Program-made: the position numbers and the translations under genes
Origin: Sedimentisphaerales bacterium
GTDB lineage: Bacteria; Planctomycetota; Phycisphaerae; Sedimentisphaerales; UBA12454
NCBI GenBank assembly: GCA_050014075.1
Contig: JBEKEA010000001.1
Span: 53,764 to 117,763 of the forward strand
Direction of reading: 5' to 3'
DNA length: 64,000 nt
In this document: positions 37,954 to 42,906 of the stretch, piece after piece
How the letters are laid out: each line of letters opens with the position of its first letter
How positions within the stretch are numbered: the first letter of the stretch is position 1
The notes under the pieces: generated by a model
Told to the model about the DNA's origin: nothing
Seen by the model: only the letters and a program-made list of their open reading frames with translations
The model's database searches: none

Positions 37954-38073
37954 TTCAAGTCCCTTAAAGGATTTAGGCGAATTTTAGAGAGTTACCCAAC
38001 AGGTTTCAAGGACAAATTATAGCCTTTTAAATATTAATATATAAAAACACGAAAAAAAAATTTAAAAATATTG

Positions 38074-38117
38074 TTGACAAATATAAGGCCTTATATTACT
38101 ATGTCTATAGGAATAGT
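38074..38117 (+). promoter_or_regulatory. Promoter with overlapping candidate Rrf2/CymR operator
   Basis: TTGACA at 38074; actatgtctataggaatagt. A similar ccataggaata lies upstream of the YezD-like ORF (about 38614-38624). Confidence 0.45.
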
Positions 38118-38148
38118 GATAATGAAAGCAGTATTTGTAACACCAAAA

Positions 38149-38586
38149 ATGATTTCGCAAAAATGCAGGTATGCATTGCGGGCCATATTTGAATTGGCTA
38201 GTCACGAGAAGTCAGACGTGATGAAAATTGCTGAAATCGCCGCTGCGCAGAGTATACCGCCGCGATTTTTGGAAAATATTCTCTTGGAACTTAAACAGGC
38301 GGAATTTGTAGCATCGAGGCTCGGCAATGCCGGCGGATATATGTTAAAAAGGCCTGCTTCAAAGCTGACGGTAGGTGAAGTAATTTTGTTCGTGCAGGGT
38401 TCTCTAATGAATAAGTTTGCGATGTCCGAGAACATAACTTTTAGAAACGGCGATTACGCTTTTTCAAATCTCTGGCAGCGATTAAATGATTCAATATCCG
38501 ACATTTATAACAATACAACATTTGCTAATCTTGTTGAAGAAGAATTAAATTCGACAAAAGAATATGTGCCGGATTATATAATTTGA
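38149..38586 (+). CDS. Rrf2 family regulator, CymR-like (no Fe-S cysteine triad)
   Basis: YALRA, IPPRFLENIL, SRLGNAGGY; C-terminal DYII; sits upstream of cysK. Start uncertain. Confidence 0.88.
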   Translation: MISQKCRYALRAIFELASHEKSDVMKIAEIAAAQSIPPRFLENILLELKQAEFVASRLGNAGGYMLKRPASKLTVGEVILFVQGSLMNKFAMSENITFRNGDYAFSNLWQRLNDSISDIYNNTTFANLVEEELNSTKEYVPDYII

Positions 38587-38635
38587 TTTTTTTTAGGAAC
38601 ACTATAAGTAAAACCATAGGAATAATAGGAATAAA

Positions 38636-38830
38636 ATGAGTTCGAAAAATAATATAAATGATGCATCTATAACTAATGCCATTATACGCGATATTGCAAC
38701 GGCTGTAGCCGGTCTGGAATTCGGAAGCGTTTTAATCAAAGTGCACAACGCACAAATAGTGCAAATTGAAGTGACACAACGAAAACGATTCGATGAATCC
38801 TGTAATGTCGAGAAAGGAGGCGGCATTTAG
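38636..38830 (+). CDS. YezD/DUF2292 family small protein
   Basis: LEFGSVLIKVHNAQIVQIEVTQRKR matches the family pattern; sulfur operon context. Confidence 0.8.
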   Translation: MSSKNNINDASITNAIIRDIATAVAGLEFGSVLIKVHNAQIVQIEVTQRKRFDESCNVEKGGGI

Positions 38831-38960: not shown

Positions 38961-39794
38961 ATGAAAAAGCTGGTTATAATTGTATTGGTCGGCCTGGGAC
39001 TAGTGTCAGCAAACACTCTCTCATACGCCGGCGTCCCGCTAATTAACCTTGAAGGAGTTGGAGGCATTGCTTTTAACCCTCTGGCTTATACTGCCGGCGA
39101 GAAAATCGAAGAGTCTAATAAGCCGAGTAAATTTTCTCTCGACAATGTCGTCACCAGTAAACCGCAGATTGGCACCTGGTATGTAAATCTTAAACAAAGC
39201 AAAATAGACTGGTCAACAGTTGGTATTGCGCAAACCTTTTTTAACCGTTTAGAGCTTTCTTACGGTTATGAACATATTTCAACAAGCTTCCAGAATAATA
39301 TAGAGAAACACAACTTCGGCGCAAAATTGCTTGTGCTGGAAGAAAAGGAATATATCCCTGCTGTTTCAGTCGGCACGGTCTTTAAACATACAACCTACGA
39401 TGGCGCTAAAGACAGTACCGATTGGGACTATTACATAGTGGCAACAAAACTTATCAAGAAAACTTTCCCCAAGCCTGTGCTGATAAGCGGCGGTTTGCTC
39501 TCCACAAAAGGAAAAGTTCTTGGAGTTCTTGGCTTCGATGACCAACGCGATGAAGTGCTTTTCGGAAATATCGATGTGCTGCCTCTTGAGAATGTGGCCG
39601 TTGGCGTTGAATACCGGCAGGGAGCGAAATTCAGCGATTTTAAGAATGCCGACTACTGGGATGCCCATATTGCCTGGTTTGTAAATAAAAACTTTTCATT
39701 GGTTGCCGCTTATGTAATCACCGGCAATCGAACGGGAAGTCCCGCTGTCGGACTCGGCGACGGAGTTGTTTTAAGCGCTCAATATGCATTTTAA
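38961..39794 (+). CDS. Putative outer-membrane beta-barrel protein (DUF3034-like)
   Basis: Signal peptide, EGVGG..NPLA motif, amphipathic strands, terminal YAF. Confidence 0.7.
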   Translation: MKKLVIIVLVGLGLVSANTLSYAGVPLINLEGVGGIAFNPLAYTAGEKIEESNKPSKFSLDNVVTSKPQIGTWYVNLKQSKIDWSTVGIAQTFFNRLELSYGYEHISTSFQNNIEKHNFGAKLLVLEEKEYIPAVSVGTVFKHTTYDGAKDSTDWDYYIVATKLIKKTFPKPVLISGGLLSTKGKVLGVLGFDDQRDEVLFGNIDVLPLENVAVGVEYRQGAKFSDFKNADYWDAHIAWFVNKNFSLVAAYVITGNRTGSPAVGLGDGVVLSAQYAF

Positions 39795-39803
39795 AGGAGT
39801 TAA

Positions 39804-41099
<1,296 letters not shown>

Positions 41100-41121: not shown

Positions 41122-42051
41122 ATGGGAAAAATATTTGAAGATATCACAAAAACAATCGGCAATACGCCTTTGGTAAAACTCAACAGGATTACTAAAGGGA
41201 CAAATGCAACTGTGCTTGTAAAGATAGAATCATTTAACCCTCTTTCCAGCGTCAAGGACCGAATAGGCGTAGCGTTAATTGAAGATGCGGAAAAGAAAGG
41301 TCTGCTGCGCAAGGATTCGATAATAATAGAGCCGACAAGCGGAAATACGGGCATTGCTTTGGCGTTTGTGGCCGCGGCAAAAGGATATAAATTGATTCTT
41401 ACTATGCCCGAAACAATGAGTATCGAAAGGAGACAGCTGCTGAAAATCTTCGGCGCAGAACTTGTGCTTACCGAAGGGCCGAAAGGGATGAAAGGAGCAA
41501 TTGAAAAGGCAGAGGAGCTTGCCAAACAAACGCCGAACAGCTTTATACCGCAGCAATTCAACAACCCGGCCAATCCCGAAATACATCGCAGAACCACAGC
41601 AGAAGAAATATGGAAAGATACCGACGGCAAAGTCGATATTCTCGTTTCCGGCGTCGGCACAGGCGGCACCATTACCGGCATAGCCGAGGTAATCAAAAAA
41701 AGAAAAAAGACATTCAAGGCGATTGCGGTCGAGCCGGATGCTTCGCCAGTCCTATCGGGCGGAAAACCAAGTCCGCACAAAATTCAGGGCATAGGCGCCG
41801 GTTTCGTTCCGAATGTGTTGAACAGAGAAATAGTCGACGAGATTGTTCGCGTTAAAGACGCAGATGTCGGCGAAACCGCAAGGCAACTGGCAAAGTTAGA
41901 GGGCATTTTGGCCGGTATCTCCGGCGGCGCCGCATTATGGGCCGGACTCGAGGTTGCCAAACGCAAAGAAAACAAAGATAAATTAATAGTCGTTATTTTG
42001 CCGGACACGGGAGAACGGTATCTCTCGACATGGCTGTTCCAGGAGTCTTAG
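41122..42051 (+). CDS. cysK: Cysteine synthase A
   Basis: [43 protein letters not shown]. Confidence 0.97.
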
Positions 42052-42126
42052 ATGAAGTATATCACCCTTAAAGAAAATAACATATTTTATTGTTGCTGTC
42101 CTATTTATTTCGCAGTCGGATTATAA
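42052..42126 (+). CDS. Candidate Cys-sensing leader peptide MKYITLKENNIFYCCCPIYFAVGL
   Basis: ATG abuts the cysK stop; AGGAG RBS at 42041-42045; three consecutive Cys codons pair with the downstream RBS. Confidence 0.55.
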   Translation: MKYITLKENNIFYCCCPIYFAVGL

Positions 42127-42162
42127 ATTTTAATTAAAATTTAAATAAATAGGATACGACAA

Positions 42163-42315
42163 ATGGAAAATATTGAAGCATTTTACACATTAGCATTATT
42201 GTATGGATTCATCAGTCTGGAAACATACGGACAGATTATTTCGAAGAATAATATCAGCCAGGAAAATACTGAGGAACTAATATCTTCTCAAGCCGAAGAA
42301 TATCTATACGTATAG
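42163..42315 (+). CDS. Small hypothetical protein, 50 aa, ends EEYLYV
   Basis: AGGA RBS at 42151-42154; open frame MENIEAFYTLALLYGF...AEEYLYV before the terminator. Confidence 0.5.
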   Translation: MENIEAFYTLALLYGFISLETYGQIISKNNISQENTEELISSQAEEYLYV

Positions 42316-42387
42316 GCGGAATATTTATTGTAACTGAGCCGAATCTTTCAACGTGGTTATTTGACGATTCATAATCTGTGAATTAAT

Positions 42388-42417
42388 AAAAAAGGCTCGC
42401 CGGAGGGCGAGCCTTTT
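42388..42417. terminator. Bidirectional intrinsic terminator
   Basis: aaaaaaggctcgcc-ggag-ggcgagcctttt between the cys operon and the convergent csp gene. Confidence 0.85.
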
Positions 42418-42435
42418 GTGTGCAATTCTTTGTTG

Positions 42436-42639
42436 TTAGACAGGCGTTACATTGTTTGCACAAGGGCCTTTCTTGCCCTGGCCAACCTCAAAGTTAACCT
42501 TCTGGTTTTCATTGAGTGATGCATAACCTGCGGTCTTGACTTCCGAATGATGGACAAACAAATCGCTGCCGCCGTCATCTGGAGTAATAAAACCATAACC
42601 CTTTTCCGAATTGAACCATTTTACTGTACCTGTACTCAT
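42436..42639 (-). CDS. Cold-shock protein
   Basis: GTVKWFN.EKGYGFI and DLFVHHS. Confidence 0.97.
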
Positions 42640-42906
42640 TACTAACTCCTTGGCCTGTTTAAAGGCGATAAAAAATACTATCTCTCGATTTTAATTTACT
42701 TTGGAAATATACTCTTGAGAGATGAAAAAATATACACCAAAACAACTAATTTTCATAAATTATACGAAATAGACCTTTAAAAGTCTATAAAAATATTAAA
42801 TAAATTATTAAATTGAGCCAATTATGGCTTTTTTGGCTAAATTATTGAATAGGCCGAAAAATTCTGCTCACCTTTGTTTTAATGCCGCATTTCAGACAAT
42901 TTTCCC

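Follow-up and report, generated by a model that had tools for sequence, protein, structure and literature searches.

The window analysed here comprises 64,000 nt of contig JBEKEA010000001.1 (positions 53,764 to 117,763, forward strand) from a metagenome-assembled genome of a Sedimentisphaerales bacterium (GCA_050014075.1; Planctomycetota, Phycisphaerae), an uncultured peat bacterium. The genome, hereafter G000, has a size of 2.36 Mb, a guanine-plus-cytosine (GC) content of 44% and a completeness of 95%, and its sister species is represented by genome G005. At the 3' end of a sulfur-amino-acid operon in this window, a cysK-type cysteine synthase gene (41122–42051; Pfam PF00291 (PALP), E = 1.9e-75; TAG stop at 42049–42051) is followed by a short leader open reading frame (ORF) with three consecutive cysteine codons, by a predicted RNA hairpin and by ORF50, which encodes a protein of 50 amino acids (aa). 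All features described below lie on the plus strand unless stated otherwise.

The leader ORF (42052–42126) comprises 24 codons (MKYITLKENNIFYCCCPIYFAVGL) and begins with an ATG at the base directly after the cysK stop codon, while its TAA (42124–42126) falls inside the hairpin loop. An AGGAG Shine-Dalgarno (SD) sequence (42041–42045) is located within the final codons of cysK and is separated from the ATG at 42052 by a 6-nt spacer. Codons 14–16 of the leader are TGT TGC TGT (42091–42099) and lie entirely in the 5' arm of the hairpin. Both the ORF with its own AGGAG and the three Cys codons had been named in a preliminary description of the locus and were borne out base by base. As the start codon directly follows the cysK stop and is equipped with an AGGAG of its own, the leader is probably translated whenever cysK is. 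A genome-wide survey of 7030 short ORFs outside long ORFs revealed three consecutive Cys residues in only 13, among which the leader alone adjoins a sulfur gene and alone shows a zero gap to the upstream stop; the other 12 were judged to lie beside unrelated genes by reading their translated neighbours, without a family scan. An 11-codon ORF, MMYIICCCGPD, was also noted on the minus strand of contig C8 (55459–55494) between genes for a giant secreted protein and a prepilin-like protein, without a visible sulfur link.

The segment TCCTATTTATTT (42099–42110) is the exact reverse complement of AAATAAATAGGA (42143–42154), which confirms the perfect 12-bp pairing proposed earlier. RNA folding extended this core to a stem of 19 pairs between a 5' arm (42091–42110) and a 3' arm (42143–42161), including two G-U pairs and interrupted by a bulged C42096. 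In line with the initial proposal, this predicted stem covers all three Cys codons and buries the ribosome-binding site (RBS) of ORF50, as UCCU at 42099–42102 pairs with the AGGA at 42151–42154, and in longer contexts the pairing reached 42085–42168, past the ORF50 ATG at 42163. The hairpin was present in the minimum-energy and centroid structures of every context folded (86, 146 and 391 nt), with an energy of −20.2 kcal/mol over 73 nt. For the 86-nt stretch, a folding energy of −21.9 kcal/mol was obtained compared with a mean of −9.75 kcal/mol for dinucleotide shuffles (z = −4.75), and none of 200 shuffles was as stable, while wider contexts weakened the signal (146 nt, z = −1.62; 391 nt, z = −1.85). 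Perfect hairpins of at least 12 bp with loops of 3–40 nt occur 64 times in the genome, with seven on contig C1 against 2, 0, 0, 0 and 0 in five shuffles. The loop harbors a perfect 20-nt AT palindrome, TAAATTTTAATTAAAATTTA (42124–42143, no strand assigned), which is off-centre to the main stem and invariant across the variants seen.

Two other identities of the hairpin were considered and discarded. A repeat or mobile element was ruled out because the genome contains no second copy of the hairpin, and an intrinsic terminator was rejected because no T-run follows the stem and a terminator scan called none there. No second copy of TAAATTTTAATTAAAATTTA with fewer than three mismatches was found in the genome, and the hairpin matched no Rfam family. 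With regard to classical attenuators, the folds revealed a single hairpin without a U-run instead of a terminator/antiterminator pair.

The genome as a whole makes use of SD sequences: a core SD was located at −17 to −5 in 33% of 1227 long ORFs (6% for a control window), and CCUCC is present at the 16S rRNA 3' end. The AGGAG of the leader begins at −11 and the AGGA of ORF50 at −12, both within the genome-wide peak of SD spacing. The predicted accessibility of the two sites is very different. An unpaired probability of 0.36, which is ordinary for this genome, was obtained for the leader SD, while the AGGA of ORF50 reached only 0.0003 (median 0.39 and 1st percentile 0.002 among 250 sampled long ORFs with an SD). 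A stalled ribosome was then modelled by forbidding pairing over 42076–42103 or 42082–42109, which corresponds to a Cys codon in the A site, and this footprint lifted the predicted unpaired probability of the ORF50 SD to 0.37–0.76.

Comparison with G005 revealed an uneven distribution of changes along the region. The block 42084–42162 differs by one substitution in 79 nt and one inserted T, while the preceding 42052–42083 carries four substitutions in 32 nt and a 15-nt insertion, and 42316–42389 carries five substitutions in 74 nt. In cysK, 52 of 930 positions are substituted, distributed as 7/4/41 over the three codon positions (third positions 41/310). The longest invariant run spans 74 nt (42084–42157), with P = 0.021 in 100,000 random placements of the 28 pooled variable sites. 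Two metagenome contigs extend this comparison, namely X4, which is about 5% different and covers the whole stretch, and X6, which is G005-like; X6 and G005 do not count as independent lineages. For both X4 and X6, the invariance of 42084–42157 holds among the differences listed for them. The Cys codons are unchanged in G005, and no change in them appears among the differences listed for X4 and X6. The only substitution in the stem, G42158A, is found in G005, X6 and contig X23 and converts a G-U into an A-U pair. The hairpin also remains predicted for G005 (z = −3.09), with 2 of 200 shuffles folding equally well. Within the leader, three of the four substitutions alter a residue and the N-terminal residues vary freely, while the frame stays open in G005 and X6 despite the in-frame insertion, which gives 29 codons. 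Free change at the N-terminus with a retained frame is expected if the leader matters only for its frame and its Cys codons, and the chance of a 15-nt insertion being in frame and free of stops is about 0.2 by our own rough arithmetic, which makes this weak support. The conservation suggested as a check at the outset was found for the Cys codons and, apart from G42158A and the inserted T of G005, for the stem in G005 and, among the differences listed, in X4 and X6, while the covariation looked for alongside it was not, and the range of lineages is narrow.

Among 40 relatives, only G005 shares the DNA 3' of cysK (92% identity over 541 nt). Four relatives (G004, G018, G021 and G012) match the cysK end only, with unrelated DNA downstream, and three match only the terminator/cspA end in a differing neighbourhood; two further matches were short and at chance level. 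A scan of metagenomes with an alignment of the ORF50 protein returned 468 pattern matches, none of which was confirmed, and a 20-nt hairpin pattern gave one metagenome match, which lies in a glmS-like gene of high GC content and was dismissed as fortuitous. A scan of viral contigs gave no match, and one of genome contigs returned the G005 record only. A whole-genome search with the single ORF50 protein matched 2 of 301 genomes (G000 and G005), the other 29 matches listed having E values of at least 0.03. Further whole-genome searches for ORF50, each over 401 genomes, matched four in the order, two in the class and one in the phylum, and only G000 and G005 were accepted; the weak order-level matches in G008 and G306 were dropped, as other long frames enclose them or run opposite to them. 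A 163-nt contig with G005-like letters, assembled at a depth of 2.5 from a peat metatranscriptome library, spans 42064–42213 and thereby both arms of the hairpin and the start of ORF50. The parts of the stretch that sequencing runs X3 and X23 leave uncovered, and small-share runs among X8–X24, did not enter the evidence.

ORF50 (42163–42315; SD AGGA at 42151–42154) encodes a predicted two-helix protein of an unnamed family and is most likely a real gene. The preliminary description had placed it below the size of normal gene calling, which proved wrong, as public pipelines already call it as a hypothetical protein. A word-indexed search revealed near homologues in seven clusters at 78–94% identity, all of exactly 50 aa. 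A profile search of 1.84 billion representatives returned ten proteins at E ≤ 0.001: one was the representative of a near cluster itself, two long repeat proteins were set aside because a short stretch was matched many times, and seven were distant relatives of 47–79 aa (E = 1.2e-17 to 6.9e-4, 42–66% identity). The latter are singletons on contigs of 320–8454 nt, share the first ~31 residues and diverge beyond. This N-terminal domain reads M-E/K-N/D-I-E-A-F-Y-x-L-A-x-x-Y-G-F-...-T-Y-x-x-I-I, with M1, Y8, A11, G15, F16, T21, Y22 and I26 invariant in the alignment. Compared with G005, ORF50 carries eight substitutions in 153 nt without a third-position bias (3/2/3 by codon position); two fall in the first 31 codons (the conservative I17L and one synonymous change) and six in the last 19. 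An AlphaFold2 model placed helices at residues 2–13 and 19–47, with an overall confidence score (pLDDT) of 74 and values of 85–95 for residues 1–20. Searches for recognisable relatives gave no accepted match: the best Pfam match was YetF_N (E = 0.042, under its cut-off), PHROGs gave none, the best match in a sequence-profile search of the PDB had an E value of 0.97, Foldseek against the PDB returned none at E ≤ 0.001, and the best ESM Atlas score of 0.83 was under the lead level of 0.9. A prediction of a CysK–ORF50 complex scored 0.01 against a mark of 0.32, a result that weighs neither for nor against binding.

Taken together, the best single reading of this arrangement is a cysteine-sensing translational attenuator that gates ORF50, a proposed mechanism to which we assign a probability of about 0.45. 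The preliminary description had seen an attenuator placed unusually at the 3' end of the operon; the position is real, and a more fitting description is that of an intra-operonic gate ahead of the last small cistron. ORF50 would be the last cistron of the sulfur-amino-acid operon with its RBS locked in a stable hairpin. While charged tRNA-Cys is plentiful, ribosomes translating the leader would terminate at its stop within the loop, after which the stem would re-form and ORF50 would remain largely untranslated. Once charged tRNA-Cys becomes scarce, a ribosome would pause on the Cys codons, which are followed immediately by the UCCU paired with the ORF50 AGGA, and its occupation of the 5' arm would free the SD and allow ORF50 to be made. 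We infer the translation of the leader, the stalling at its Cys codons, the dependence on cysteine and a role of ORF50 in sulfur metabolism. Of the original claim of stalling at Cys codons, the architecture, the burial of the SD, its modelled opening and a mycobacterial precedent stand in favor, while nothing shows a cysteine-dependent response. The reading is physically coherent, and the thin evidence behind it consists of predictions and shallow conservation.

Several observations weigh against this attenuator. By our own estimate from base composition, an open frame of 24 codons is expected in about 1 of 8 cases in sequence of 28% GC and is not rare. The ORF50 AUG remains largely paired under the modelled footprint (unpaired probability 0.08–0.59). 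The DNA of the element is known only from G000, G005 and two metagenome contigs, lineages that are 5–8% apart; the extra T in the 3' arm of G005 bulges the 12-bp core, and no compensatory double change was seen in the comparisons with G005, X4 and X6, so that support from covariation is absent. The 32-nt loop is as invariant as the stem, for which plain sequestration gives no account. As an RNA library may carry DNA, the 163-nt contig is a hint of expression only. For ORF50, neither a recognisable protein family nor a fold relative emerged, and nothing therefore ties it to cysteine. No Cys leader was found at the main cysteine operon of the genome, rrf2-cysK2-cysE on contig C4. Among 60 short ORFs containing two consecutive Cys codons upstream of long ORFs genome-wide, the 17 on contigs with located sulfur genes were checked, and none lies within 1.5 kb upstream of a sulfur gene. 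The C4 operon and these 17 ORFs thus give no sign of a wider Cys-leader regulon. Finally, passage of any ribosome over the 5' arm would open the stem, and the gate may simply couple ORF50 to translation of the leader.

This last point leads to the main rival, a structure-mediated translational coupling that senses no cysteine, in which ribosomes arriving from cysK would melt the stem, ORF50 would track the translation of cysK and the Cys codons would merely be the sequence that pairs with ACGACA. We regard this as somewhat unlikely, since a run of three Cys codons directly before the anti-SD segment and beside a cysteine synthase gene would be an improbable coincidence, given 13 such ORFs among 7030 with one beside a sulfur gene, and since a mycobacterial response to cysteine needed no more than two to three Cys codons in a row (10.1101/834739). 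Both explanations account equally for the hairpin, for the burial of the SD and for the SD-equipped TAG-ATG junction. Every elongating ribosome must unwind 42091–42110, and no other Cys leader was found near sulfur genes of this genome, which is in favor of coupling. So is the composition of the tract itself: TTGTTGCTGT is a (YTG)3 repeat that encodes Cys-Cys-Cys in only one of three frames.

A hairpin with a role outside translational control, accompanied by a fortuitous and untranslated 24-codon frame, appears unlikely. Such a hairpin could act in stabilising or processing the metY-cysK message at its 3' end, or the AT-rich palindromic loop could provide a protein-binding site or a promoter region for a separately transcribed ORF50. 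The invariance of the whole block, including the 32-nt loop with its 20-nt palindrome, suggests that more than base pairing alone constrains it, the region has a GC content of 30% like other non-coding DNA of the genome, and the RNA-library contig covers 42064–42213 while none from this organism covers the cysK end, the last being a weak observation. Against this reading, the same contig crosses both arms, and no sigma-70-like promoter was found on the plus strand between cysK and ORF50. Likewise, the missing T-run disfavors an intrinsic terminator, the palindrome lacks both a near-identical second copy and an Rfam match, and the leader has a start codon and an SD at the spacing of real genes. 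That the stretch has no function, being a chance hairpin with chance ORFs in a young and variable cysK–cspA intergenic region, is highly unlikely in our view. The narrow distribution of the element, the variation of the neighbourhood of the cspA terminator within the genus and the low GC content of ORF50 (33% versus 44–48% in the neighbouring genes) would fit such an origin; against it stand a hairpin far stronger than its shuffles that is also the most conserved part of the region, and distant protein relatives of ORF50 with a conserved N-terminal domain.

A wider proposal sets two conditions for the synthesis of ORF50, transcription of the sulfur operon together with a shortage of charged tRNA-Cys, and the gate would then release a dedicated small protein and no biosynthetic enzyme. 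This proposal of ORF50 as a starvation-only effector of an undescribed small-protein family under two-key control, with Rrf2-type transcription control and a translational Cys sensor as a ribosome-read gate outside Actinobacteria, is possible and in our judgement doubtful. If the attenuator itself works as proposed, it would extend cysteine-responsive translational attenuation from mycobacteria to Planctomycetota and would imply that such a device can be SD-led, intra-operonic right behind a stop codon and directed at a small effector instead of an enzyme. It would also give a first lead on the function of this unnamed family of small proteins, and an RNA module of about 110 nt that senses cysteine in a compact, natural form. 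Should the Cys codons prove irrelevant, the locus would still represent a clean case in which a hairpin couples a small gene to its upstream neighbour.

The surrounding genes are consistent in order with a sulfur-amino-acid operon. An Rrf2-family regulator gene (38071–38586; Pfam PF02082, E = 9.9e-28) lies immediately 5' of it, followed by a gene for a 64-aa DUF2292 protein as the probable first cistron (38636–38830; PF10055, E = 1.5e-12), a DUF3034 gene (38961–39794; PF11231, E = 9.6e-26), a metY-like gene for an O-acetylhomoserine/cystathionine-type pyridoxal-phosphate enzyme (39807–41099; PF01053, E = 2.1e-136) and cysK, and then by the leader ORF, ORF50, 74 nt and a GC-rich terminator hairpin (42390–42417, no strand assigned). 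The latter has a perfect 12-bp stem, is common to the operon and the convergent cspA gene, was called by the terminator scan on the minus strand and appears in the centroid fold. The operon therefore has an uncharacterised small protein at either end, DUF2292 first and ORF50 last. The 15-nt motif TAAAACCATAGGAAT (38609–38623) occurs in exactly two copies in the 2.36-Mb genome, each 13–14 nt 5' of a start codon: the copy in the window precedes the DUF2292 gene, and that on C4 (73447–73461) precedes the Rrf2 gene leading the rrf2-cysK2-cysE operon. Allowing one mismatch added two copies (C16 and C39) before unrelated-looking ORFs. This candidate sequence may represent a shared operator or 5' untranslated-region element of a sulfur regulon.

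The cspA gene (42436–42639, minus strand) with its flanks (42387–42788) matched the Rfam cspA thermoregulator with E = 9.9e-11 and 49.4 bits, compared with a gathering threshold of 78. The flank of the cspA terminator differs within the genus (loci L007–L009, in G010, G002 and G009, respectively), with a GIY-YIG-like ORF of 95 aa in G002 and short GC-rich repeats (CCCCGCAC...) in G009 and G010, and the junction beside this terminator looks like a variable spot. The 3'-phosphoadenosine-5'-phosphosulfate reductase family (PF01507) had no match in the 95%-complete genome, which does encode two CysK paralogues, a CysE-like protein and a single NIR_SIR-domain protein; the organism may take up reduced sulfur and may not reduce sulfate.

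The closest known systems are the polycysteine short ORFs of Mycobacterium smegmatis, for which Canestrari et al. reported attenuation of downstream genes; there, the Cys-codon tract pairs with the SD region, ribosomes stalled for lack of Cys-tRNA free the SD, and compensatory mutants support the pairing (10.1101/834739). Ms5788A and the 'Cys ribulon' share with our element a short ORF with consecutive Cys codons, an RNA duplex in which the Cys tract hides the SD of the next gene and control at the level of translation without a terminator, the duplex being predicted only in our case and the pause-freed SD being shown there and proposed here (10.1101/834739). The mycobacterial ORFs are leaderless and occupy the 5' end of the transcript, ahead of genes of cysteine metabolism, whereas the present ORF is SD-led, begins at the base after the cysK stop at the 3' end of an operon and would gate an orphan 50-aa protein inside a sulfur-amino-acid operon (10.1101/834739). 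It also differs from the mycobacterial type described in that report in having only three Cys codons and in belonging to a planctomycetotal MAG of the Phycisphaerae.

In ORF50 gating, the presumed signal is a shortage of charged tRNA, and no resistance gene lies downstream, unlike in ermC- and cat-type attenuation. Stalling in the latter systems requires an antibiotic and a specific nascent peptide. The layout is alike in that a leader ORF runs over the 5' side of a stem holding an RBS, which a stalled ribosome opens, as outlined in the mycobacterial study (10.1101/834739). For Actinobacteria, Cys leader peptides were predicted by Seliverstov et al. (PMC1262725), and these, like trpL and hisL, share with our leader a run of codons for the amino acid made by neighbouring genes. 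In contrast to them, the element described here has no terminator/antiterminator pair or U-run and lies after, not before, the biosynthetic genes. The literature searched gave no description of an element of this kind from Planctomycetes, nor of one positioned 3'-terminally in a cys operon; one article on Planctomycetes, leader peptides and attenuation (PMC4833913) deals with reinitiation distances and not with cysteine. Overall, the element presents itself as a plausible variant of the known polycysteine attenuation mechanism.

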